Source: Ignavibacteriota bacterium (lineage in GTDB: Bacteria > Bacteroidota > Ignavibacteria > UBA10030 > UBA6906). Taken from it: 64,000 nucleotides of DNA. How positions within the stretch are numbered: the first letter of the stretch is position 1; each line of letters opens with the position of its first letter. Location: positions 13,758 through 77,757 of the forward strand of contig PMJR01000120.1 in NCBI GenBank assembly GCA_003158475.1, read 5' to 3'. The notes beneath the pieces were generated by a model that was not told the DNA's origin, did no database searches, and saw nothing but the letters and a program-made list of their open reading frames with translations. Below are positions 38,057 to 53,300 of the stretch, one piece after another. The position numbers were made by a program, and so were the translations under genes.

Positions 38057-38319
38057 GGGTCGTGATTACACGATCATGACAACCCCCGGGATCTGCTCAC
38101 TGCACTTCGGTCCCTTCCCCTCGGGGAGGGGTATTCCGGAGGAAAGGTGAAGCCCACTCCCGGGGGGAAGGGAACCCGTTGGAGTGGGAGCTGTTCAAAG
38201 ATGATTTGAGTCTCGCATTCCACTTTCGTACATTAAGTACTCCGGGATACGCTCCCGGGAGAACGGCCTCCTACTCCCGAAGACCCGACCCGTATCGCAC
38301 CCCTTATTGAAGGATTTGA

Positions 38320-40461
38320 ATGGAATCGCAGATTCGGCCCGCGACAACTCATGCTTTGATCACACCAGGTTCCAACCGACCACTCCACGCTTATGCGGCA
38401 TACGCTTTCCTGCTACTGTTCCTCGGCACTCTCAGTGCGGCGTCTGTCTCCGCCCAGTGGGTTCAGACAAACGGCCCGGGCGGAGGGCATGTCTATTCAA
38501 TTTATGCCGCCGGCCCGGGCCTTATCGCCGGAACATCCGGCGGTCCCTATGTTTCCAGCAATGGTGGGACATCCTGGACCCCTGTGAATTCCGGAATTCC
38601 GGGCAGGGTTGTCTATGTCTTCAACGGTTCCGGCGCGGGTATACTCGCCGGCACAGATGAGGGAATGTATCTCTCCAGTGACGGCGGGTTCAACTGGGCC
38701 GAATCTGATTCCGGGCTGGGTGCGAAGTCGGTGAGGGCGTATGCAACCATCGGCACACGCCTTTACGCCGGGACGGTGGGAGGGGGAGTGTTCCTGTCGA
38801 CAAATGCCGGCGCCGCCTGGACAGCGGTCGATTCGGCGTTGACATCAATGGACGTGTATTCCCTTCTTGCGCGCGGGACAACTCTTTTCGCCGGGACACG
38901 CACCGGCGGAGTGTTCATTTCCGCCGACAGCGGTACGAGCTGGACGGCCGTCAATTCGGGTCTGACGGACCTGAACGTCAATGCGCTCGCAACAATCGAT
39001 ACGAACTTGCTCGTCGCAACAGAGAGCGGCGGCCTGTTCTTCTCTTCCAACAGCGGTGCAGCCTGGACCGCACTCGGTGCGGGCATCCCCCTTCGGCACG
39101 TCGGCGTCCTCCTGAAGAGCGGCACAAACTTCTTTGCCGGGAACGACAGCGCAGGGGTGTTCGTCTCGACTGACCGGTGCCTGACCTGGGGAGCCGTGAA
39201 TGCGGGTCTCACGGACACGAAGGTCGTCGCGCTTTCCCAGGACGGGTCAAAACTCTACGCGGGGACGGAATACGGAGGCGTCTTCGTCTCTCCGGACAAC
39301 GGTGCGAGCTGGTCTTCTCTCAACGGGGGGCTGACGAACACATTTGTCAATGTGCTGCTCGCCGACGGGTCCACACTGTATGCCGGGACCAGCGGTTCGG
39401 GAGTGGCCGCGTCGACGGACAACGGGGGGACCTGGGTGCCGCTCAATCGCGGGCTGACTTCACCTGATGTATTTGCCCTGGCCTCCGACGTGACAAATCT
39501 CTATGCGGGGACGTATCACGGCGGTCTATGCCTGATGCCGAAGACAGGTTCCACCTGGTCCCCCGCGGGTGCGGGGATCACCAACAACGACGTCAATGCC
39601 CTCCTGACGGTTGGAGGTGTCCTCCTGGCCGGCACGAGCGGCGGCATCTTCCGTTCGACGGACGGCGGGCTCCACTGGTCATCCTCAAGCTCGGGGCTCA
39701 CTATCCCCTTTGTGAACGCTCTCGCTTCGGGTGCGGGAACGATCTTCGCGGGGACGTACGGCGGCGGGATCTGCAGATCCGCCGACGGGGGTGTGAACTG
39801 GGTCCCGGCACCGGGGGGCATTCCTCCGTACGGGGCGGATGTCAACGCAATCGTGACATCGGGAACGTCCCTGTTCACCGGGACGCCACTCGGCGGCCTG
39901 TATGTCTCCCGCGACAGCGCCAGGACCTGGTCCGTGGCAGGTCTCACGGACACATGCGTGACCTCTCTTGTCGCATCCGGCACGAGCGTGTTTGCCGGGA
40001 CGCTCGGTGCGGGCGTGATGCTCTCGAACGACGGCGGGGTGTCATGGACGGGGACGGGACTCCCGAGCACGGATGTCCTCGCGCTCGCCATCAACGGCAC
40101 ATTCGTGGTTGCCGGGACAAGCGGGCACGGTGTCTGGCGGCGCCCGATGTCACAGATGACCGTCATGGGTGTGGCCGCGTCGTCGGGTTCCGGACCGGCG
40201 GTGTTCCGGCTGGGGCAGAACTTCCCCAACCCGTTCAATCCGTCCACGACAATCGCGTATCAGGTGCCGGCGGCCGGCCAGGTGACACTCAGGGTTTTCG
40301 ATTTGCTGGGGAGAGAACTGGCGACGCTCGTCGATGAGCGAAAAGATGCAGGCACCTACGCGGTGCGGTTTGAAGGGGCAAATCTCGCCAGCGGAGTCTA
40401 CCTCTACCGGCTGACAGCCGGGCAATTCACGCAGACCCGCAAGATGGTAATAATGAAATAA
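38320..40461 (+). CDS. BNR/Ycf48-like repeat beta-propeller protein (about 12-14 units of about 47 aa) with T9SS C-terminal sorting domain
   Basis: Repeats LFAGTxxGGVFxSxDxGxSWTAVNSGLTxxxVNALA. C-terminal GQNFPNPFNPSTTIAY...GVYLYRLTAGQFTQTRKMVIMK. Confidence 0.75.
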   Translation: MESQIRPATTHALITPGSNRPLHAYAAYAFLLLFLGTLSAASVSAQWVQTNGPGGGHVYSIYAAGPGLIAGTSGGPYVSSNGGTSWTPVNSGIPGRVVYVFNGSGAGILAGTDEGMYLSSDGGFNWAESDSGLGAKSVRAYATIGTRLYAGTVGGGVFLSTNAGAAWTAVDSALTSMDVYSLLARGTTLFAGTRTGGVFISADSGTSWTAVNSGLTDLNVNALATIDTNLLVATESGGLFFSSNSGAAWTALGAGIPLRHVGVLLKSGTNFFAGNDSAGVFVSTDRCLTWGAVNAGLTDTKVVALSQDGSKLYAGTEYGGVFVSPDNGASWSSLNGGLTNTFVNVLLADGSTLYAGTSGSGVAASTDNGGTWVPLNRGLTSPDVFALASDVTNLYAGTYHGGLCLMPKTGSTWSPAGAGITNNDVNALLTVGGVLLAGTSGGIFRSTDGGLHWSSSSSGLTIPFVNALASGAGTIFAGTYGGGICRSADGGVNWVPAPGGIPPYGADVNAIVTSGTSLFTGTPLGGLYVSRDSARTWSVAGLTDTCVTSLVASGTSVFAGTLGAGVMLSNDGGVSWTGTGLPSTDVLALAINGTFVVAGTSGHGVWRRPMSQMTVMGVAASSGSGPAVFRLGQNFPNPFNPSTTIAYQVPAAGQVTLRVFDLLGRELATLVDERKDAGTYAVRFEGANLASGVYLYRLTAGQFTQTRKMVIMK
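38470..40130 (+). repeat. Diverged tandem repeats (about 141 bp) inside the propeller gene
   Basis: Recurrent ...ttcgccgggac...ggcgg.gtgttc...tc..cgac.gcgg....tggac.gc.gtcaa..cgggtctgac.ga... blocks at about 141-nt spacing. Confidence 0.6.
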
Positions 40462-40546
40462 GCGGTGAGCAGACGATCGGGGAAACCCCCATTGCCGACT
40501 GTTTTCAGAGTTTTTTGTTTTTTCCAAAGATTCCACTTGACAGAGT

Positions 40547-40575
40547 GGGAAGAATTCGTATTTTTGTTGTGAGAC
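40547..40575 (+). promoter_or_regulatory. Candidate sigma70-type promoter of the ilv-leu operon (TTGACA, 16-17 nt spacer, TATTTT)
   Basis: ttgacagagtgggaagaattcgtattttt, about 10 nt upstream of the leader ORF. Confidence 0.35.
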
Positions 40576-40585
40576 AACTTCCACA

Positions 40586-40726
40586 ATGGGAACGAACGCA
40601 CATATCGCGGCGACCTCAGGATCCCTCCCCGGGATCCATAGCCCGGTTCCGTCTCTTTCCCTCATTATTAACATTCTGCTGCTTATTAGCCTCCCGACCG
40701 TTCTGGGGCTGTTGATTAACAGCTAA
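40586..40726 (+). CDS. Putative ilv-leu attenuator leader peptide (46 aa, Leu/Ile-rich tail)
   Basis: MGTNAHIAATSGSLPGIHSPVPSLSLIINILLLISLPTVLGLLINS. 9 Leu, 5 Ile and 1 Val fall in a 22-residue stretch, several encoded by ATT codons that are rare in this high-GC genome. Confidence 0.45.
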   Translation: MGTNAHIAATSGSLPGIHSPVPSLSLIINILLLISLPTVLGLLINS

Positions 40727-40839
40727 CCGAACGCCGGAGGCCAACCAGCACATACCCCTAGCAACATCCAAGCGGTCAAGCGCGGTTCCCCTCCGGCGGA
40801 CAAGTGCAGCATTTTGCTCGTTCATCAAGAGGAACTGAG

Positions 40840-42525
40840 ATGGCCGACAAGGAAGCACAAAACCTCCGGAGCAGGACGATAACCCAGGGGGTCCAACGAA
40901 CTCCCAACAGGGCGATGCTGCGTGCCGTGGGATTCGGCGACGGTGATTTCAGCAAACCGATCGTGGGCGTTGCGAGCGCCTACAGCACCATCACCCCATG
41001 CAACATCGGACTTCGGGATCTGGCCGACCGTGCGGTCAAAGCCCTCCGTTCCGCCGGCACCATGCCCCAGATATTCGGGACCATCACCGTAAGCGACGGT
41101 ATCTCGATGGGGACGGAGGGGATGAAGTACTCGCTCGTTTCGCGTGAGGTGATCGCCGACTCGATCGAAACCGCCTGCAACGCCCAGAGCATGGACGGTG
41201 TCCTCGTTGTCGGCGGCTGCGACAAGAACATCCCCGGAGCGATGATCGCCATCGCGCGCATGAACATCCCCGCCATATTCGTCTACGGCGGAACGTCCAA
41301 GCCGGGACACCTTCACGGGAAGGACCTCACCGTGGTCAGCGCGTTCGAGGCGGTGGGGGAATACAGCGCAAAGAAAATCACCGAAAGCGAGCTCCAGGAT
41401 GTGGAGCGGAGCTGTTGTCCGGGCGCCGGCTCTTGCGGAGGGATGTTCACCGCCAACACGATGTCTTCGGCAATCGAGGCGATGGGGCTCAGCCTCATGT
41501 ACTCATCCACGATGGCTGCCGAAGATGCGGAAAAATCCGACAGTTCTGCACGTTCTGCCGAAGTCCTTGCCGAAGCAATTAGGCACCGCATCCTCCCTGA
41601 GCGGCTCCTCACGCGTGAGGCGTTTGAAAACGCGATCGCTGTCGTGATGGCGATCGGCGGTTCCACGAACGCCGTCCTCCACCTTCTCGCGATCGCACAC
41701 GCCTCGGGCGTCCCCCTCTCGATCGACGATTTTGAAACTGTCCGGGCTCGCGTCCCCGTTCTCTGCGACCTGAAGCCTTCGGGCCGGTTCGTCGTCACGG
41801 ACTTTCACAGGGCCGGAGGCGTCCCCCAGGTGATGAAGATCCTCCTCGCGCACGGGGTGCTACACGGAAAGGCGATGACGATAACGGGAGAGACCGTCGA
41901 AGAACTCCTGAAGAGTGTCCCGGCGGTCCCTCCCGCGGAGCAAGAAGTGATCCGTTCCTGGGAGAAACCGCTCTACCGGGAGGGGCATCTTGCGATTCTC
42001 AAAGGGAACCTCGCAGTTGAAGGAGCCGTCGCCAAAGTGACCGGTGTCAAACAGCCTGTCATTACGGGTCCGGCGCGGGTGTTCGATTCCGAAGAAGCCT
42101 GCCTGGAAGCGGTACTCGCCGGGAGGATCAGGAAAGGGGATGTGATCGTCATCCGCTACGAAGGACCGCGCGGCGGTCCGGGGATGAGGGAGATGCTCGC
42201 GCCGACATCTGCTATCATCGGTGCGGGACTCGGGGATTCGGTCGGCCTCATCACCGACGGCCGCTTTTCAGGCGGCACGTATGGTATGGTGGTCGGCCAC
42301 GTGGCGCCCGAGGCGTTCGTGGGGGGGACAATTGCGCTTGTCGAGGAGAACGACATGATCACCATCGACGCGCGGAAGCGATTGCTTCATCTTGACGTCG
42401 CGGAGGGGGAGCTCGGGCGGAGGAAGGAGGCCTGGGTCCAGCCCGGGCCCCGGTACAGGACGGGCGTTCTCGCAAAGTACGCGCGCCAGGTGTCGAGCAG
42501 CAGTGTCGGTGCTGTCACGGATTGA
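40840..42525 (+). CDS. ilvD: Dihydroxy-acid dehydratase
   Basis: RBS gagga plus ATG 40840 ([11 protein letters not shown]). [18 protein letters not shown]. Full-length IlvD collinearity. Confidence 0.9.
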
Positions 42526-42557
42526 TGCATTCACAACCACTGAGCGGAGGGTTCACG

Positions 42558-44381
42558 ATGTCACGACAGGAGCACGAGGAAGAGGGTCCGGCCACAGCGG
42601 GAGGCCGGCTCATGACCGGAGCGGAGATTTTCGTCCGGAGTCTCATCGCCGAAAATGTTGAAGTCCTCTTCGGCTACCCCGGGGGAGCGACAATCGGTGT
42701 CTACGACGCGCTCCACGACATCTCCGATATCAACCACGTCCTTACACGGCACGAGCAGGGGGCGACGCACGCTGCGGAAGGATATTCCAAGGCCACCGGG
42801 AAACCCGGCGTCGTCCTCGTCACCTCCGGCCCAGGGGCGACGAACACCGTGACCGGGATCGCGGACGCAATGATGGATTCGATCCCGCTCGTGGTCTTCT
42901 CCGGCCAGGTCCCCCTCCGGCTCATCGGCAACGATGCATTCCAGGAAGCGGACATCGTTGGTATCACGCGTCCCATCACCAAACACAACTATCTCGTCCG
43001 GGACGTCCGTGAACTTGCGCAGACGATCAAGGAGGCCTTCTACATCGCCACGAGCGGACGCCCCGGCCCGGTCCTTGTCGATCTCCCGAAGGACGTGATG
43101 GCCCAGAAAACGCACTTTGCGTACCCGCAGAGCGTCACGCTCAGGAACTACGCCCCCATCCTCGACGGGAATATCCGCCAGATACGAAAGGCGGCGGAAT
43201 TGATCAATGCGGCGAGCCGCCCGGTCCTCTACGTCGGGGGGGGAACGATACTCTCCAACGCTGCGGCCGAGCTCACGGCGCTTGCCCGGAAACTTCGCTG
43301 CCCGGTGACGACGACCCTCCACGGCCTGGGCTCGTATCCGGAGAACGACCCCCTCGCCATGGGGATGCTGGGGATGCACGGGACCTGGTATTCGAACATG
43401 GCGGTCCATTTCTGTGACGTCCTCATCGCTGTCGGAGCCCGGTTCGACGATCGTGTGACCGGCAATGTTGAGGCGTTCGCGGCCGAGGCGAAGAAGATAC
43501 ACATCGACGTCGATCCGGCCGCCATCAGCAAGAACGTCAAGGTGGACGTCCCGATCGTCGGGGACGTGAAACGTGTCCTCACCTCACTCCTGGAACTCGT
43601 CAACCCCCTCGAGACGCAGGACTGGCTCAGGACCATCGATGCCTGGAAAGACGAGCACCCTCTCCGCTACCGAAACGGCGACGAGATCCGCACGCAATAT
43701 GTTATGCAGAAACTGGGGGAAATCACGGAGGGGAACGCCATTGTCGTCACGGATGTCGGGCAGCACCAGATGTGGGCGGCTCAGTTTTTCAACTTCTCCC
43801 ATCCCCGGACGCACATCACCTCCGGGGGTCTGGGGACGATGGGGTTCTCCCTCCCCGCCGCCATGGGGGCCGTGTTCGGCCGCAGGGATCTCCCCGTCAT
43901 TTCAATCAGCGGCGACGGGGGATTCCAGATGAACAGCCAGGAGATGGCGACGATCGTCCAGCACCGCCTCCCGGTCAAGATCATCGTGATCAACAACGGT
44001 TTCCTCGGCATGGTCCGTCAATGGCAGGAGCTGTTCTGGCGGCGCAGGTACTCGCAGGTCGAGCTCGCGAACCCCGACTTCGTCCGGCTGGCGGAGGCGT
44101 ACGGCTGCACGGCCTACCGCGCCACGCGCACTTCGGAGGTGGAGGATGTCCTCCGGAAAGCGATGGGGCACACCGACGGCCCGGTCTTCGTGGAGTTTGT
44201 TGTCGCAAAAGAGGACAACGTCTACCCGATGATTCCCGCGGGACAGACGGTCAATGAAATGATCGACACCCCTGATCCCGCTCCGGGCGGGCACGAGACG
44301 GCGGGGGGCCGGATCGAAACGGTCGAAAAAGGAAAAGCCAGAAAGGTAAGCGTCCATGCCCCCGTCACAAGCAATGCTTAA
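42558..44381 (+). CDS. ilvB: Acetolactate synthase (AHAS) large subunit
   Basis: TGAEIFVRSLIAENVEVLFGYPGGA, GPGATN and GDGGFQMN ThDP motifs. RBS ggaggg plus ATG 42558. Confidence 0.9.
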   Translation: MSRQEHEEEGPATAGGRLMTGAEIFVRSLIAENVEVLFGYPGGATIGVYDALHDISDINHVLTRHEQGATHAAEGYSKATGKPGVVLVTSGPGATNTVTGIADAMMDSIPLVVFSGQVPLRLIGNDAFQEADIVGITRPITKHNYLVRDVRELAQTIKEAFYIATSGRPGPVLVDLPKDVMAQKTHFAYPQSVTLRNYAPILDGNIRQIRKAAELINAASRPVLYVGGGTILSNAAAELTALARKLRCPVTTTLHGLGSYPENDPLAMGMLGMHGTWYSNMAVHFCDVLIAVGARFDDRVTGNVEAFAAEAKKIHIDVDPAAISKNVKVDVPIVGDVKRVLTSLLELVNPLETQDWLRTIDAWKDEHPLRYRNGDEIRTQYVMQKLGEITEGNAIVVTDVGQHQMWAAQFFNFSHPRTHITSGGLGTMGFSLPAAMGAVFGRRDLPVISISGDGGFQMNSQEMATIVQHRLPVKIIVINNGFLGMVRQWQELFWRRRYSQVELANPDFVRLAEAYGCTAYRATRTSEVEDVLRKAMGHTDGPVFVEFVVAKEDNVYPMIPAGQTVNEMIDTPDPAPGGHETAGGRIETVEKGKARKVSVHAPVTSNA

Positions 44382-44904
44382 TACGCAGGCGAGCGGTGTG
44401 CCTGACGAGAAGGTGAAGCGGCATACGATCTCCATCCTCGTCCAGAACAAGTTCGGCGCGTTCAACAGGATCGCCGGCATGTTCGCCGCGAAAGGGTACA
44501 ACATCGACAGCCTGAGCGTCGGCCCGACCGAGGATGAGGGGGTGTCGCGCATGACGATTGTGGCGCGCGGGGACGATCAGATCATCGAGCAGATCACGAA
44601 ACAGCTGAACAAGCTGATCGACATCGTGAAGGTGATCGACCTGACGTTTGAAAGTTTCGTCGACAGGGAGCTTGTCCTGGTCAAGGTGCATGCCACGAAC
44701 GACACCCGCCCCGAGATCATGCAGATCGCGGAGATCTTCCGTGCCAAGGTCGTCGACATCAGTCCCAGGACGCTCACGCTGGAAGCGACGGGGAGCCAGC
44801 AGAAGGTCGATGCGATAATCAAGATGCTGAAACCCTACGCGATCAAGGAGATGGCGCGTACGGGACGCGTCGCGCTGAAACGTGAGTTCCAGGGAGAGGT
44901 ATGA
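44356..44904 (+). CDS. ilvN: Acetolactate synthase small (regulatory) subunit
   Basis: ACT domain [33 protein letters not shown]. Overlaps the ilvB end; an alternative ATG at 44374 exists. Confidence 0.85.
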
Positions 44905-45935
44905 TCATCGTCATGCAGCCGGGTGCTTCCCGGGAACAGGTCGATCATGTCTTCGAACAGGTGCGCACGCTCGGCTACCAGGTTCACCCGATTTACGGCG
45001 AGCAGAGGACGGTGATCGCCTGCGTCGGTGACGAAAGGGAAAAATACCGGCTGCAGGCGCTGGAAGTCCTGGAGGGTGTTGAAAGCGTCGTTCCCATACT
45101 CAAGCCTTACAAGCTGGCGAGCACCGACTGGAAACCCGGGCGGACGACTATCCGCCTGGGAAAGGAGGGGGAGAAGAACACGGTGACGATCGGCAGCAAC
45201 CACTTCGTCGTGATGGCGGGCCCCTGTTCGGTAGAGAGCCGGGAGCAGATTCTGACGGTTGCCGAACAGGTCAAGAAGGCCGGTGCGAAAGTCCTTCGCG
45301 GCGGGGCGTTCAAGCCACGGAGCTCCCCCTACAGCTTTCAGGGGCTCGAAGAAGCCGGACTCAGGCTGCTGGCCGAGGCGCGGGAGAAAACCGGCCTCTT
45401 CATCATCACCGAGGTGATCACACCGACGGACGTCGATCTCGTGGCGGACTATGCGGACATACTTCAGATCGGGGCCCGTAACATGCAGAACTTCGCGCTC
45501 CTCAAGGAGGTGGGAAAGGTCCGCAAGCCCGTTCTGTTGAAACGGGGGATGGCCAACACGGTGAAGGACCTTCTCCTCTCGGCGGAATACATCATGTCGC
45601 AGGGGAACTACGAGGTGATCCTGTGCGAACGGGGGATAAGGACGTTTGAAGATTACACGCGTAACACATGCGATCTTTCCGCCGTGCCGGTGGTCCACGA
45701 GACAAGCCACCTCCCCATCATCGTCGATCCGAGCCACGGCACCGGCGTCCGGAGCCTTGTCACCCCCATGGCGAAAGCCGCTGTGGCTGCAGGGGCGGAC
45801 GGTCTGATCATCGAAGTCCATTCCAAACCCGAGGAGGCATTTTCCGACGGCGCGCAGTCGCTGACCCCTCCCCAGTTCGAAGACCTCATGACGTGGGTAA
45901 AGAAACTGATAGACGTAGAAGGAAGAACACTCTAA
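44901..45935 (+). CDS. 3-deoxy-D-arabino-heptulosonate-7-phosphate (DAHP) synthase, type I-beta with N-terminal ferredoxin-like regulatory domain (Thermotoga-type)
   Basis: [10 protein letters not shown]... N-terminal domain. [40 protein letters not shown]. Collinear with T. maritima DAHPS. Confidence 0.85.
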
Positions 45936-45948
45936 GGAGATTGTATCC

Positions 45949-47511
45949 ATGAACGACCGCATCATCGTGTTCGATACGACGCTCCGGGACGGGGAGCAGT
46001 CGCCTGGTTGCAGCATGAACGTCGAGGAGAAAATGCGCATGGCCCGGCAGCTTGAACGCCTGAACGTCGACGTCATCGAGGCCGGCTTCCCTGTCGCCTC
46101 CTCCGGGGATTTTGAAGCGGTACGCATGATCGCGGGGACTCTCGAGCGCTCCTCGGTCGCGGGTCTTTCCCGGGCGATGGCGGGAGATATCGACCGGACC
46201 TGGGAGGCGATCCGCGGGGCGAAAAAACCCCGCATTCACACGTTCATCGCGACATCCGACATCCACCTTGCACACAAGCTCAAGAAGACGCGCGATCAGG
46301 TTCTGAAGGACGCCGTCCTGGCGGTGGAATATGCCCGGTCCCTCTGCGCCGATGTCGAGTTCTCCTGTGAAGACGCCTCCAGGACCGACATCGGCTTTCT
46401 CTGCGAGATCTCACAGGCGGTCATCACCGCGGGTGCCACGGTGCTCAACTTCCCCGATACGGTCGGCTACGCGATCCCGGCGGAATACGGGGCGATGTTC
46501 AGGGCAATCCGGGAACGCGTCGGCAACCTCGGGTCGGTGGTCCTCAGCGCCCACTGCCACAACGATCTCGGCATGGCCGTGGCGAATTCCCTCGCGGCGG
46601 TTGAGAACGGGGCGCGACAGATCGAGTGCACCGTCAACGGCATCGGGGAGCGGGCCGGGAACGCCGCGCTCGAGGAGATCGTCCTGGCAATCAAAGTCCG
46701 CGCGGAACGGCTCGGGGTGATGACGGGCGTCGATGCGCAGGAGATCTACCGCTCGAGCAAGCTCCTGTCGAGCCTGACGGGGATGCAGGTGCAAAGAAAC
46801 AAGGCCGTCGTCGGGGCGAATGCCTTTTCGCACGAGGCCGGCATCCACCAGGACGGGATGCTCAAGAGCGCGATCACATACGAGATCATGACCCCGCAGT
46901 CGGTCGGGATCAAGCACAGCACGCTGGTGCTGGGAAAACACTCCGGGCGCCATGCGCTCAGGAAACGATATGCTGAACTCGGGTTCGAGCTCTCCGACGC
47001 AGAACTCGACCGGGCATACGCGGGCTTCACCGCAATCGCCGACCAGAAGAAGGAGATATTCGACGAAGAATTGATTGCGATACTCGATGAGAGTGTGCGC
47101 GGCTCGGAGCTGGACTTCCATCTCGTGGGACTCCATGTGAGCACCGGCACGACAATCCGTCCGACGGCCACCGTGGAACTGAAGTTCGGAGAACAATTGA
47201 TGTTCGACTCCGCCACCGGCGACGGTCCTGTCGACGCGATGTACCGGGCCATCGAGCGGCTGACGGGAATCGTGGGGAAACTCACGGAATATTCACTCAA
47301 GTCCGTGAGGATCGGCCACGATACCGTGGGAGAGGTGTTTGTGCGGGTGGAGTTCGACGGCGTCCAGTACAACGGGAGGGCCGTGAGCACCGACGTCATC
47401 ACCGGGAGCGCGCGGGCCTACCTCGAGGCCATGAACAGGGCACTGAACGTGCGGAGGCGTCGGGAGGGGCGTGTCAAAGAGAGCATCGCCCTCGCCTCTT
47501 CTGTCGTATGA
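45949..47511 (+). CDS. leuA: 2-isopropylmalate synthase
   Basis: [33 protein letters not shown]-terminal LeuA regulatory domain. Confidence 0.9.
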
Positions 47512-47539
47512 TGATGACGCCACAAGCGGGAGGCTGACG

Positions 47540-48949
47540 ATGAACGCACCGAATCCGAAGACCCTGTTTGAGAAGGTATGGACGTCGCATGTCGTGACGC
47601 AGGAGCCGGGTTCTCCTGCGGTCCTCTCTATCGACCTTCACCTGGTGCACGAGGTCACTTCCCCCCAGGCATTCGCAGGGCTCCGGGCCCGGGGAATCCC
47701 CGTGCGGAAGCCCGGGCGGACCTTTGCCACCGTGGACCATAGCATACCCACCGGCGATCCCGCTGTTCCCCTGAGCGATCCGCTCGCATCGCGGCAGATC
47801 GGCCAGATGGAGGAGAACGCGCGGTGGGGGGGGATCCGGTTCTTCGGGATGAACAGCGCGCAGCGCGGGATCGTCCACGTCATCGGTCCCGAGCTCGGTC
47901 TCACGCAACCGGGCATGACCGTGGTGTGCGGCGACAGCCACACATCGACGCACGGGGCGTTCGGTGCCCTCGCCTTCGGGATCGGGACGAGCGAGGTGGA
48001 ACATGTGCTGGCGACGCAGTGCCTCCTCCAGCGCCGTCCCGGCGTCTGTGAAGTCCGGATCGAGGGAACCCCGGGACCGGGCGTCACGGCGAAGGACATC
48101 GTGCTGGCGCTCCTGGCGCGGATCGGGGTGGGGGGAGGGACAGGGCACGTTTTCGAATATACCGGCAGCGCGGTCGGCTCGCTCACAATGGAAGAACGGA
48201 TGACGATATGCAACATGTCGATCGAGGGCGGCGCGCGGGCCGGCATGATGGCGCCGGACGACACAACCTTCGAATACATCGCCGGGAGGGAATTTTCTCC
48301 CAGGGGTGCGGACTGGGACCGCGCCGTTGCCCGGTGGCGGAAGCTCCCGACGGACGATGGGGCCGTTTTCGACATGTCCCTGACGCTGGATATTTCCGAC
48401 CTCTCCCCCATGATCACGTTCGGCACCAATCCCGGGATGGGGCTCGCACTCGGTGCGCCCGTCCCTGCTCCGGATGAGGTGACTGATCCGGGCCAGCGTT
48501 CGGCGCTCAGGAAGGCCCTGGAGTACATGAACCTCACGCCGGGTCAGCCCCTTCTCGGCCGCCCGGTCAACGTCGTTTTTATCGGGAGCTGTACGAACGG
48601 AAGGATTTCGGATCTGCGGCTCGCCGCCTCGGTCCTCCGCGGGCGGAAGGTCGCCCCCACCGTGCGTCTCCTGGTGGTCCCGGGATCGCAGGCGGTGAAA
48701 CGGCAGGCAGAGGCTGAAGGGCTCGACCGGGTATTCAAGTCTGCGGGGGCGGAATGGAGGGAAGCCGGCTGTTCGATGTGCATCGCAATGAACGGTGACC
48801 AGCTCTCTCCGGGCGAGTATGCCGTGAGTACGAGCAACCGGAATTTCGAGGGACGGCAGGGAAAAGGGGGACGGACGTTCCTGGCTTCCCCGCTGACAGC
48901 GGCGGCAAGTGCGGTGACCGGCAAAATCACTGACGTCCGGACTTTATAA
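47540..48949 (+). CDS. leuC: 3-isopropylmalate dehydratase large subunit
   Basis: Aconitase-family motifs ([20 protein letters not shown]...). Confidence 0.9.
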
Positions 48950-48959
48950 GGAACAGCGC

Positions 48960-49553
48960 ATGCCTGGATTCACACGTTTCACCTCCCGGGTCGTCCCGCT
49001 CCTCGTCGATAACGTCGACACGGATCAGATCATACCGGCCCGGTTCCTCAAAGTAACCGATAAACTGGGGCTGGGGGAGAACCTGTTTTCGGACTGGCGG
49101 TACAACGCGGACGGTTCGGCGCGGCGCGACTTCGTCCTGAACATGCCGGAACACCGGGGGGCACAGATCCTTCTGGCCGGCGACAATTTCGGGTGTGGAT
49201 CTTCGCGTGAACATGCTCCCTGGGCGCTCACCGGGTTCGGTTTCCGGACGGTGATCAGCACGTCGTTTGCGGACATTTTCGCAAACAACGCACTGAAGAA
49301 CAGTCTCCTCCCTCTCGCTCTGAGCGGGGCGGATCACCGCGACGTCGTCGCACTCCTGAAATCGGACCCCGCCGCCGAGCTTACAGTCGACCTCTCCTCC
49401 CAGACTTTGCTCGTCCCCGGGGGAAGGTCCATGTCGTTCCCGATCGACGGTTTTGCAAAAACATGCCTGCTGGACGGGGTGGATGAGCTCGGGTACCTCC
49501 TCCGGTTCATGCGGGAGATCGAAGCGTTCGAAAAGTTCACATCGCGGGGTTGA
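48960..49553 (+). CDS. leuD: 3-isopropylmalate dehydratase small subunit
   Basis: [33 protein letters not shown]. Confidence 0.9.
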
Positions 49554-49556
49554 GCC

Positions 49557-51113
49557 ATGCGCGTACAGGTGTACGATACGACGTTGCGCGACGGCACGCA
49601 GAGAGAAGGGATTTCACTCTCGTGCGATGACAAGCTCCGGATCGCCAGGAAACTCGACGACCTGGGTGTGGCGTACATTGAAGGGGGATGGCCGGGCTCG
49701 AATCCGAAGGACGTCGAGTTCTTCTCCCGGGCGAGGGACCTCCGGTGGAATCACGCGGTGATAACATCGTTCGGTTCCACGTGCCGCGTCGGGGGACGCC
49801 CCGGCGACGACGCCAACATCGCGGCGCTCGTCGATTCGGCGACGACCGTCTGCACGCTCGTGGGAAAGACGTCGATGTTTCATGTGAAAGAGGTTCTGCG
49901 CACGAACGCGGAGGAGAACCTGAGGATCATCCGGGAGAGCACGGCATACATCGTGCAGCGGGGACGGAGGGTCTTTTACGATGCGGAACACTTTTTTGAC
50001 GGGTTCAAGCTCGACAGGGCGTACGCCCTGGAGACACTCCGCGCCGCCGCCGCCGGTGGGGCGGAGATTCTTGTACTCTGCGACACCAACGGGGGGACGA
50101 TGCCATGGGAAATTGCCGAGATCGTTGCCGTCGTCCGTGAAGGGACCCCTGTCCCTCTCGGGATACATACACACAACGACGCGGAGTGCGCGGTGGCGAA
50201 CTCCCTTGCCGCCGTACGGGAGGGGTGTATCCAGGTGCAGGGGACCATCAACGGGTACGGAGAACGCTGCGGCAACGCCAACCTGATTTCGGTGATCGCC
50301 GATCTCACGCTCAAACTGGACGGGGAGTGCCTCCCCGAGGGGAACCTCGCGCGGCTCACGGACACCGCCCACTACGTTGCGGAGATTGCGAATCTCTCCC
50401 CCGACGGCCACCTCGCCTACGTCGGGAAATCGGCGTTCGCCCACAAAGGGGGGATCCACGTCGCCGCAATCAGGCGCAGCCCCGATTCCTACCAGCACTG
50501 CGATCCGGCGCTCGTGGGGAATGTCATGCGCGTCGTGGTATCGGAGCTGTCGGGACGCGCGAACCTCGTCAGCAAATCGGAGGAGTTTGGGTTTGAGAAC
50601 GTGGACAAGGGGCGGATCGGCCAGGTCCTCGACCAGATCAAGGCTCTCGAGGCGAAGGGGTTCTCCTTTGAAGCGGCCGAGGCGTCTGTCGCTCTGATGA
50701 TGCAACGCCAGCAGGATAATTATGCCCCGCCGTTCGAGCTGATCGATCTGACGGTGAACGTCGAGCACAGGGAAGGACGGGGTATTTTTGCCGAGGCGAC
50801 CGTCAAGCTGAGTGTCGCCGGGAGCGTCATCCACACTGTTGCGGAGGGGAACGGGCCGGTCAACGCGCTCGATACGGCGGTCAGGAAGGCGCTCACCCCC
50901 GTCTACCCGAAGCTCGCTTCGTTCCAGCTTGCCGACTACAAGGTCAGGATACTGGACGGGACCAACGGCACCGCGGCCACGACACGTGTCCTGATTGAAA
51001 CGAGGAACGGCACACGCCGCTGGAGCACCGTGGGAGCGAGCGCAAACATCATCGAAGCGAGCTGGCGCGCGCTTTCCGACAGCATCGAATACGGACTGAC
51101 CTCCAATGCATGA
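49557..51113 (+). CDS. cimA: (R)-citramalate synthase (CimA-type LeuA paralog)
   Basis: MRVQVYDTTLRDGTQREGIS..., collinear along its full length with Geobacter-type CimA (518 aa). Confidence 0.8.
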   Translation: MRVQVYDTTLRDGTQREGISLSCDDKLRIARKLDDLGVAYIEGGWPGSNPKDVEFFSRARDLRWNHAVITSFGSTCRVGGRPGDDANIAALVDSATTVCTLVGKTSMFHVKEVLRTNAEENLRIIRESTAYIVQRGRRVFYDAEHFFDGFKLDRAYALETLRAAAAGGAEILVLCDTNGGTMPWEIAEIVAVVREGTPVPLGIHTHNDAECAVANSLAAVREGCIQVQGTINGYGERCGNANLISVIADLTLKLDGECLPEGNLARLTDTAHYVAEIANLSPDGHLAYVGKSAFAHKGGIHVAAIRRSPDSYQHCDPALVGNVMRVVVSELSGRANLVSKSEEFGFENVDKGRIGQVLDQIKALEAKGFSFEAAEASVALMMQRQQDNYAPPFELIDLTVNVEHREGRGIFAEATVKLSVAGSVIHTVAEGNGPVNALDTAVRKALTPVYPKLASFQLADYKVRILDGTNGTAATTRVLIETRNGTRRWSTVGASANIIEASWRALSDSIEYGLTSNA

Positions 51114-51125
51114 ACGGGGCGGCAT

Positions 51126-52193
51126 ATGAAGGCAGGCATTGTACTCCTCCCGGGTGACGGCATCGGCCCGGAAGTGGCCCGGGCGGCGCACAGGGTCCTC
51201 ACGGAAATCGCCCGGCTGGGAGGGCATGAATTCACGTTCACGACACAGCTCATCGGGGGCTGTTCCATCGACGCTTCCGGGGTCGCCCTGACGCCGGAAG
51301 TGCTCGACTCCTGCAAGAAGGCGGATGCCGTGCTTCTCGGGGCCGTAGGAGGTCCGCGCTGGGACAACCCGCAGGCAGCCGTGAGGCCGGAGCAGGGGCT
51401 CCTGGCGCTCAGAAAAGGACTATCGCTGTACGCAAATCTGAGACCCGTCAAACCCCACCCGCTTCTCCTCGACGCGACCCCGCTCAAGCCAGCACACGTG
51501 AAAGACGTCGACGTGATGGTGGTGAGGGAACTCACCGGCGGCCTCTATTTCGGCACGCCGCGGGGTCGGGACGAGGTCGACGGCCTCGTCCGGGCCTTCG
51601 ACACGATGGAGTACTACGAATATGAGATCAAGCGCGTGGTCGAGCTGGCATTCCAGCTTGCCGGGGGGAGGAGGAAGAAAGTCACTTCGGTGGACAAGGC
51701 CAACATCCTTGAGACGTCACGCCTCTGGCGCCAGACTGCCATTGACGTCGCGAAAGGCTTTCCCGATGTGACACTCGAACATATGCTTGTGGATACCGCC
51801 TCGATGCGGCTGATTTCATCCCCCGCGGCGTTCGACGTCCTCGTGACGGAGAACATGTTCGGCGACATATTGACGGACGAGGCGTCCGTTCTTGCCGGCT
51901 CGATGGGCCTTCTCCCTTCGGCGTCGATCGGAGAAGGAGGGCCCGGTGTCTATGAGCCGATTCACGGGTCCGCGCCGGACATTGCAGGGAAGGGATCCGC
52001 GAACCCGGTGGGAGCAATACTGAGCGCGGCGCTCCTCCTGCGGCACTCGCTCCACCTGGGCGACGAAGCGGAGGCCGTCGAGCGTGCCGTCGACAGGGCG
52101 ATCGCCGACGGTTTCCGGACGGCGGACATCCGGGGCACACACGGCACGGAAGAGGTCACCGAAGCCGTCGTGAAGAGAATCACACTCAGGTAG
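51126..52193 (+). CDS. leuB: 3-isopropylmalate dehydrogenase
   Basis: [36 protein letters not shown]. Confidence 0.9.
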
Positions 52194-52238
52194 GAATCGT
52201 CAACTGCAACCACACACTCAGGCAAGGAGAACGACAGC

Positions 52239-53300
52239 ATGGCGCTCATCGATTTCGGCGGTGTCAAGGAGGAAGTTGTCACCCGGGAAGAGTTCACGCT
52301 CGCGAAGGCGCGAAACGTGCTGAAGGACGAGGTCGTTGCGATCATCGGCTATGGCCCGCAGGGGCACGGCCAGTCGCTGAACCTCCGGGACAACGGGGTC
52401 AGCGTGGTGATCGGTCAGCGGAAGGGGGGAAAGGGCTGGCAGGATGCTCAGCACGATGGGTGGGAGGAGGGGAAAAACCTCTTTGAGAACATCGAAGAAG
52501 CCGTGCGTCGCGGTACGATCGTGCAGAACCTCCTCTCCGATGCGGGGCAGAAAGACCAGTGGCAACGCGTGCTGAAGAACCTCAGAAAAGGACAGGCGCT
52601 CTGTTTCTCGCACGGCTTTTCCGTGGTGTTCAAGGATCAGACGGGAGTGGTCCCGCCCAAAGACGTCGATGTGTTCCTCGTTGCCCCCAAGGGAGCGGGG
52701 CGGACCGTGCGGACGAACTTCCTTGCCGGGAGCGGCATCAACTCCAGTTTTGCGATCTACCAGGATGCGACTGGGAGGGGAGGGGAAAGGGCGGTGGCGT
52801 TCGGGATTGCGATCGGGTCAGGCTATCTCTTCCCCACGACGTTCGAGAAGGAAGTCCTGAGCGACCTCACGGGTGAACGGGGCGTGCTCATGGGGGCGAT
52901 CGCCGGGCTGATGAAAGCGCAATACGAAACTCTCCGTGAAATGGGGCACTCCCCGAGCGAGGCCTTCAACGAAACGGTGGAAGAGGCGACGCAATCGCTC
53001 TACCCCCTGATCGGTGCGAATGGCATGGACTGGATGTTCGCTTCCTGCAGCACCACCGCGCAACGGGGGGCGCTTGACTGGTCAAAGCGGTTCGAGACAG
53101 CCGCAAGGCCCCTCTTCGAGCTGCTCTACCGGGACGTCCGGGCGGGTGTGGAGTCCCAGCGCGTCCTGGATACGTGCAGCGCCCCCGACTACCGCGAGAA
53201 GCTCGAGGGAGAGCTGGGAGCGTGGCGGAACTCAGAAATGTGGCGGGCCGGGGCTGCCGTCAGGGCGCTCCGCCCCGAGAACTGGAAGAAGACCAAGTAA
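52239..53300 (+). CDS. ilvC: Ketol-acid reductoisomerase (class I)
   Basis: [26 protein letters not shown]-binding fold; the IlvC C-terminal domain. Confidence 0.9.

Follow-up and report, generated by a model that had tools for sequence, protein, structure and literature searches.

We identified a candidate regulatory RNA in the intergenic gap preceding ilvD in a 64,000-nt stretch of DNA from an Ignavibacteriota bacterium (NCBI GenBank assembly GCA_003158475.1, contig PMJR01000120.1, positions 13,758 to 77,757 of the forward strand), which we refer to as the window. The gap (40462-40839, plus strand, 378 nt) reaches from the stop codon of a gene encoding a BNR/Sortilin-type propeller protein to the ilvD start codon, and it holds the only copy of the element in the window. 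The gene ilvD (ATG 40840-42, plus strand; TIGR00110, 4e-233) is the first in a putative operon for branched-chain amino acids (BCAA) comprising ilvD, ilvB, ilvN, 3-deoxy-7-phosphoheptulonate (DAHP) synthase, leuA, leuC, leuD, cimA, leuB and ilvC (40840..53300, plus strand). The operon genes overlap or have short intergenic gaps, and the ten are presumably co-transcribed. A preliminary description of the window, made from the letters of the sequence, had placed an Ile/Leu-sensing attenuator ahead of a ten-gene BCAA operon. The ten genes stand, and all are assigned by NCBIfam with E-values of 1e-61 to 1e-250; their identities required correction, as the fourth gene encodes DAHP synthase and the tenth is ilvC (52239-53300). 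The GC content, which had been put at about 64 %, is 59.9 % as measured over the window. The DAHP synthase gene (44901-45935; NF006421, 1.5e-150) places an enzyme of the aromatic pathway between ilvN and leuA.

The gap contains a sigma-70-like promoter (40537..40564, plus strand) consisting of the -35 box TTGACA (40537-42), a 16-nt spacer and the -10 box TATTTT (40559-64). This is the promoter-like element of the preliminary description; it matches 10 of 12 consensus positions, and in a promoter scan the region holds 2 sites where 0.2 are expected. The transcription start site is predicted near 40570-40573, which would give a 5' untranslated region (UTR) of about 13-16 nt. Directly downstream is an open reading frame (ORF) of 46 codons plus TAA (40586..40726, plus strand) that had also been described and that translation confirms, with the product MGTNAHIAATSGSLPGIHSPVPSLSLIINILLLISLPTVLGLLINS. 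Its tail is rich in Leu and Ile as claimed (9 Leu, 5 Ile and 1 Val in residues 24-45), and Leu, Ile and Val together account for 15 of the last 25 codons. ATT was said to be a rare Ile codon, and indeed all five Ile residues of the tail are encoded by ATT, which makes up 17.7 % of the Ile codons in 18 window genes. The ORF has no Pfam match. Taken alone it is unremarkable and not beyond what chance would give, as the gap is also overlapped by several further ORFs (30-174 aa); the ORF and the inverted repeat that follows it gain significance only through their conservation in relatives.

We found 26 distinct homologous leaders, and an additional one (L131) in an Ignavibacteriales metagenome-assembled genome (MAG). 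The sequences come from MAGs labelled Bacteroidota or Ignavibacteria and from metagenomes. They were collected from homologues of the IlvD protein, from two GTDB genomes (L044 and L045) and from a metagenome scan with a 25-nt pattern derived from a conserved block of the RNA (R3, see below). The scan returned 32 loci, 26 of them true matches that are all upstream of ilvD and six of them chance matches. The window IlvD itself is also encoded on metagenome contigs, and homologues 94 to 78 % identical to it occur in MAGs labelled Bacteroidota or Ignavibacteriales. All 26 leaders and that of L131 lie directly 5' of ilvD. The gene further upstream may encode a propeller protein, a peptidase M13, a sulfate transporter, a CARDB protein, glutamine synthetase, a UvrC-like protein or LipA, and the element therefore travels with ilvD.

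IlvD is so strongly conserved that the best 80 loci in a scan of genome contigs are mostly from cyanobacteria, Acidobacteria and Gemmatimonadota. Of these 80, L044 and L045 alone carry the element, and it is absent at the IlvD loci of cyanobacteria, Acidobacteria, Gemmatimonadota and others. One Bacteroidota MAG with an IlvD 76 % identical to that of the window (L098, 1041-1503) is without the leader element, and its ilvD stands alone with no ilvB after it. A search of the 4227 models of Rfam release 15 gave no match within 40462-40840 at E <= 10, nor in five diverse relatives at E <= 1.

Both the promoter and the reading frame are conserved in the relatives. In all 26, TTGAC(A/T) is followed after exactly 16 nt by a TATATT-like box, and the two boxes keep a constant distance to the leader. 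In the alignment the ORF is open from a homologous ATG or GTG to a homologous stop codon in 26 of 26, in agreement with the expectation of the preliminary description that a leader ORF would be conserved upstream of ilvD. Its length takes seven values (135, 138, 141, 144, 147, 150 and 174 nt), every one a multiple of three. Averaged over the family, 9.4 Leu, 4.0 Ile and 1.9 Val fall among the last 25 codons (15.3 of 25, or 61 %), compared with about 23 % in the proteins of the window, and ATT accounts for 87 of the 104 Ile codons in the tails across the family. The N-terminal half of the peptide drifts freely, even between close relatives. The stop codon is found 5-7 nt before a conserved RNA segment designated R2 in all relatives (26/26 counted), the exception being a frameshifted contig, L117 (minus strand). 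In this contig indels at about 1994-2300 in reverse-complement coordinates break the leader frame and leave the RNA blocks intact; the break is probably an assembly error in a contig of low coverage. Judging from these patterns, the leader ORF is presumably translated.

The RNA contains four segments, designated R1 to R4, that can form three alternative helices (all of the features described here are on the plus strand). R1 (CTGCTGCTTATTAGCCTCC, 40676..40694) covers codons 31-37 of the leader (L L L I S L P) and is proposed to pair with R2 as long as no ribosome lies on it. R2 (CGCCGGAGGCCAACCAGCA, 40732..40750), which may pair with either R1 or R3, begins 5 nt past the TAA (40727-40731 lie between), and its motif GCCGGAGG starts at 40733, 6 nt from the TAA. 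R3 (CGGTTCCCCTCCGGCG, 40783..40798) pairs with R2 through 40784-98 and with R4 through 40783-89. R4 (GGAACTG, 40831-37) belongs to the ilvD translation-initiation region (TIR, 40827..40842), together with the Shine-Dalgarno (SD)-like sequence AAGAGGAA (40827-34) and the ATG. The inverted repeat of the preliminary description, CGCCGGAGG / CCTCCGGCG, corresponds to R2 and R3; it exists, and its left arm is 40732-40740 rather than starting from 40731. In a repeat search it extends to 15 nt (40732-46 with 40784-98, 87 % complementary), and the same kind of search pairs R1 with R2 in the window over 15 nt (40680-94 with 40736-50, 80 %).

All three helices show covariation. For R1:R2, 73.5 % of cells pair in the family compared with 29-43 % when the strands are slid, and covarying pairs read GC11/AU5 and CG9/UA4. 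For R2:R3 the same count gives 87.7 % of cells (27-48 % slid), with one pair that reads AU16/GC8/UA1/GU1, and the RNAalifold consensus contains no other helix. R3:R4 was counted on an unbiased alignment (A2), in which 83.5 % of cells pair compared with 17-48 % slid; its covariation is 0.306, against 0.177±0.023 in shuffles (0/500), and one pair reads AU10/GC5/CG4/GU2/UG1. In most lineages, duplexes between R3 and the TIR attain -15 to -24 kcal/mol. Within R2, columns 101 and 106 of alignment A1 covary with both R1 and R3. As R1:R2, R2:R3 and R3:R4 share nucleotides, they are mutually exclusive. The parts of the leader are conserved, and its three helices covary and exclude one another.

A small hairpin, Hs (GCTGTT-gatt-AACAGC, 40708..40723), reaches as far as the last sense codon and lies immediately ahead of the stop. 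In this hairpin 83.8 % of cells pair compared with 13-58 % slid, one pair reads UA9/AU8/GU2, and covariation is 0.199 against 0.113±0.017 in shuffles (0/500). The sequence GCTGTTG (40708-14) was considered as a second R1 that might pair with R2, and was dropped since the covarying local hairpin explains these bases better. A perfect 7-bp inverted repeat within the N-terminal half of the ORF (GGATCCC/GGGATCC, 40619..40637) would form a hairpin, and by eye each subgroup has a hairpin of different sequence at the same place. On a sequence-based alignment the pair count for it is 60 %, compared with 59 % when slid by -1. This hairpin could be a pause or folding element. A possible 5' helix between GGGAAAC at the leader start and GTTTCCC pairs in 69 % of cells, compared with 63-68 % when slid by -1 or -2, in sequences of low complexity.

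Several blocks of the leader are conserved outside these helices. The loop of R2:R3 holds GCACAYACC (40748-40756) and CGGTMAAGC (40773-40781), the latter partly fixed by the search pattern. CGGTMAAGC is similar to R2 and might offer R1 an additional partner. A T-rich patch between R3 and R4 is a further conserved block of this kind. Within the ORF, the nucleotides of CAYANCGC (leader codons 6-8, 40601-40608; alignment A2 columns 47-54) are conserved throughout the family, in contrast to the drifting codons on either side, and no pairing partner was found for this block.

Segment R0 (CGTCTCTTTCCCTC, 40650..40663) covers leader codons 22-26 and is a second possible anti-ribosome-binding-site segment in this genome. 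In the minimum-energy fold of the window it pairs with GAGG...GAGATG at the ilvD start (-16.9 kcal/mol, z -4.5). Direct pairing of R0 with the TIR was rejected as a mechanism for the whole family, in which the mean z is -0.7. It is lineage-specific, because only 5 of the 26 relatives show it significantly (z < -2). In the window, a ribosome on the leader would also relieve the pairing of R0 with the SD sequence.

Folding calculations are consistent with a switch between R2:R3 and pairing of the TIR. The whole leader folded as a single sequence is only slightly more stable than shuffles (z -1.6 and -2.0), and the finding could not have been based on the folding of one sequence. In constrained folding of the 26 leaders, masking R1 gives R2:R3 a probability of 0.77, a ribosome placed at the stop codon gives it 0.00, and the mean pairing of R3 with the TIR rises from 2.5 bp to 9.0 bp between the same two states. 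The two conformers of the window leader are nearly isoenergetic (-87.0 and -85.7 kcal/mol).

Given the Leu/Ile/Val-rich ORF, the position of its stop codon and the alternative helices, we consider it very probable that the element is a BCAA-sensing leader-peptide attenuator upstream of ilvD. With more reserve, we favor a ribosome-mediated attenuator of the ilvD-led BCAA operon that acts by controlling access to the ilvD ribosome-binding site. The conserved promoter would start transcription, and translation of the 46-codon leader would follow. With plentiful Leu, Ile and Val, the ribosome would run to the TAA (40724-26) and cover the 5' half of R2, and after its release R1 would re-pair with R2. 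With R2 covered or bound by R1, R3 would be free to pair with R4 (40783-89 with 40831-37); this sequestor, the OFF helix, would bury the SD region and leave ilvD untranslated. The untranslated operon RNA would then probably be lost through polarity or decay, which would extend the effect to the nine downstream genes. Under a shortage of charged Leu or Ile tRNA, the ribosome would stall on the Leu and Ile codons that overlap R1 (codons 27-40). R2 would then be left free to form R2:R3, the anti-sequestor or ON helix, R4 would be released, and ilvD would be translated. We infer the response to Leu and Ile supply, the stall signal and the level of the output, whether translation or transcription. 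SD-like motifs precede most of the operon genes, so the organism appears to use SD-dependent initiation.

Several points weigh against this proposal. The leader ORF itself lacks an SD sequence, and its predicted 5' UTR is short. The Leu and Ile codons overlap the RNA pairing, and the nucleotide conservation there is not cleanly assignable to either. In the subclade of the window R3:R4 is only 7 bp (CGGTTCC/GGAACTG), and its duplex, at -12.9 kcal/mol, has a z of about -0.5 relative to shuffled TIRs. With a ribosome at the stop codon, the predicted fold of the window pairs the TIR with R0 and not with R3, and the total predicted TIR pairing averaged over the family changes little between states (0.61 and 0.71). 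These calculations were run at 37 °C, and the growth temperature of the source organism may differ. Finally, in one relative (L114, 1397-1425) R3 serves as the 5' arm of a canonical intrinsic terminator, with a 7-bp stem containing five GC pairs (CGCCTCTggcgaAGAGGCG then T8), where other members have a helix over the ribosome-binding site, and its sequence indicates that termination is used somewhere in the family.

The output could instead be mainly transcriptional through Rho-dependent termination of the tnaC/mgtA type, in which a loading site for Rho is uncovered by the position of the ribosome or by an untranslated ilvD. Between R2 and R3, the loop and linker (CCAACCAGCACATACCCCTAGCAACATCC, 40741-40769) are C-rich and G-poor, a composition like that of a Rho utilization (rut) site, and polarity following blocked ilvD translation is expected anyway, as in mycobacteria (bioRxiv 10.1101/834739). 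However, this explanation does not account for the strong covariation between R3 and the SD region, and the C-rich loop would be only partly sequestered inside R2:R3 in the ON state. We regard it as unlikely.

We see still less reason to favor classical transcription attenuation, in which the same sensor controls an intrinsic terminator formed from the inverted repeat, from a hairpin before the TTTT run (40812-15), or from both. The preliminary description had read the inverted repeat and a cattttg tract as such a terminator. The tract is present (40810-16), and the T-rich patch (A/T)TTTG(C/T) between R3 and R4 is conserved in the subgroup of the window; the terminator of L114 and a weak terminator-like site in L115 also speak for termination. 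However, a terminator scan of the window finds nothing after R3, and the TTTT run, with no hairpin leading into it, lies 12 nt past the R2:R3 stem. Terminator-like sites turn up solely within the ORF, and no more often than by chance (2 where 1.6 are expected). Because R2:R3 forms when R1 is masked, it is the helix of the ON state, and termination there would switch the operon off in starvation, which is the wrong sign. The covarying partner of R3 is the SD region: R4 ends 2 nt before the ilvD ATG, and as R3:R4 is followed by AG and the ATG without a U-run, this helix is not a terminator. Of the attenuator originally proposed, the promoter, the leader ORF and the alternative pairing are thus borne out by their conservation in the 26 relatives, whereas its terminator output is not.

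It is improbable that the element is instead a structured RNA regulating in cis through a bound protein or small ligand in the manner of a riboswitch, with the ORF incidental or merely tolerated. The conserved unpaired GCACAYACC and CGGTMAAGC, as well as CAYANCGC in the leader, are not accounted for by attenuation and could be read in this way. However, a tolerated ORF would not explain a frame kept in all 26 leaders over seven lengths, the fixed spacing between stop codon and R2, or a tail that is 61 % Leu/Ile/Val, and the Rfam searches described above gave no riboswitch or leader match. The idea that the ORF encodes a small hydrophobic membrane peptide with its own function and no regulatory role can be given almost no credence: although its 22 C-terminal residues are long and hydrophobic enough for a transmembrane helix and some pipelines call the ORF as a gene, its N-terminal half drifts between close relatives, it has neither an SD sequence nor a Pfam match, it adjoins ilvD whatever the upstream neighbor, and it is interlocked with covarying helices that reach the ilvD ribosome-binding site.

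Comparison of the relatives suggests that the output of the attenuator may vary. Besides L114 and L115, two further leaders (L045 and L111) were examined in this respect; no terminator was detected in either by scan, and both show pairing of R3 with the TIR. From these sequences the same sensor seems to be coupled to different outputs within the family. We tentatively suggest, at slightly less than even chances, an undescribed leader family with a conserved sensor (the Leu/Ile/Val ORF, R1, R2 and R3) and interchangeable platforms. Most members, including the window, would hide the ribosome-binding site in an ermC-like helix, and at least one (L114) would use an intrinsic terminator built on the same R3.

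The leaders of the enterobacterial operons ilvGMEDA (ilvL), ilvBN (ivbL) and leu (leuL) are the classical leader-peptide transcription attenuators. The element shares with them a Leu/Ile/Val-rich leader ORF before a BCAA operon, regulatory codons that lie over region 1, the sensing of more than one amino acid, helices 1:2, 2:3 and 3:4 that exclude one another, and a stop codon placed so that the terminating ribosome covers region 2. Unlike in these systems, the 3:4 helix described here ends 2 nt before the ilvD ATG without a U-run and is not a terminator. The element has no sequence or Rfam similarity to them, its leader lacks an SD sequence and its host is Bacteroidota- or Ignavibacteria-like. 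In its output it is closer to the translational attenuation of ermC and cat, where the stall signal is an antibiotic acting with the nascent peptide. There too are four segments, and a ribosome stalled on segment 1 lets 2:3 form and frees segment 4, which carries the SD sequence and start codon. The presumed signal here, in contrast, is a shortage of charged Leu, Ile or Val tRNA at a run of cognate codons.

The closest case shown experimentally is that of the poly-Cys small ORFs (sORFs) of mycobacteria, in which a codon-rich sORF likewise controls the SD sequence of the next gene. For the leaderless sORF Ms5788A, control of SD access, with release of the SD sequence by a stalled ribosome, translational control and downstream polarity have been demonstrated (bioRxiv 10.1101/834739). 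There, the sORF is leaderless and its Cys tract pairs directly with the SD sequence in a two-state arrangement, whereas the element described here has a conserved R2/R3 relay. The actinobacterial LEU element upstream of leuA, predicted by comparative genomics as a pseudoknot with a base stem, also has a Leu-rich candidate leader ORF, and its run of Leu codons pairs with the SD box of the BCAA gene; its authors favored protein binding (PMC1262725). It has no sequence relationship to our element and a different layout of helices. The direct pairing of R0 with the SD sequence in the window resembles the layouts of both the mycobacterial and the LEU elements, but it is not conserved across the family. 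The 'ilvD motif' of Veillonella (WRC-18-2) and the 'ilvB motif' of Leptospira are restricted to those genera, have no leader ORF and are weak riboswitch candidates (PMC8632094). They are similar to the element in being conserved structured RNAs upstream of ilvD or ilvB and are otherwise unrelated.

Among the papers covered, our literature search found no earlier description of an ilvD leader from Bacteroidetes, Chlorobi or Ignavibacteria, although Lopatovskaya et al. 2010 may have predicted one. That study reportedly surveyed attenuators across phyla that included Bacteroidetes/Chlorobi. The kind of control proposed is a known one, and what is most likely hitherto undescribed is its form and its lineage, which is uncultured and Bacteroidota- or Ignavibacteria-like.

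The upstream neighbor in the window, the propeller gene (38320-40461), carries the Por_Secre_tail domain of the type IX secretion system (T9SS) by Pfam. Between its stop codon and the -35 box (40479-40526), a short GGGG-AAA-CCCC hairpin gives way to long runs of T (gttttttgtttttt) close to the box. The predicted fold of this region is no better than that of shuffles, and it could be the terminator of the upstream gene, an UP-like element, or both. Promoters of Bacteroides are of the TTTG/TAnnTTTG type. All of the leaders collected here have a sigma-70-like TTGACA-16-TATATT promoter although their MAGs are labelled Bacteroidota or Ignavibacteriae. The intergenic region 5' of the propeller gene (38057-38319) has a predicted fold of -115 kcal/mol (z -3.8), with 0/200 shuffles equally stable. 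Its only Rfam matches are microRNA-like and at chance level.

In enterobacteria, the control of ilv and leu operons by leader-peptide attenuation is textbook knowledge; in the Fibrobacteres-Chlorobi-Bacteroidetes (FCB) superphylum, with many of its genomes available only as MAGs, such control is poorly charted. For an entire uncultured lineage, the element described here is a covariation-supported candidate for an RNA that regulates the main BCAA operon, and its promoter, sORF and three helices allow it to be annotated from sequence alone. It also calls for caution in annotation, as the 46-codon ORF is to be regarded as a leader and not as a membrane protein. If the proposed mechanism is correct, starvation-sensing translational attenuation would reach beyond mycobacteria, whose poly-Cys sORFs are the only experimentally shown case that we found. 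If the family does have interchangeable platforms, leader-peptide attenuators would swap output modules as riboswitches do. One sensor with an apparently translational or terminator output would provide a natural test case for the evolution of attenuator expression platforms. For the organisms represented by these MAGs, expression of the operon is likely tuned by the supply of Leu and Ile.

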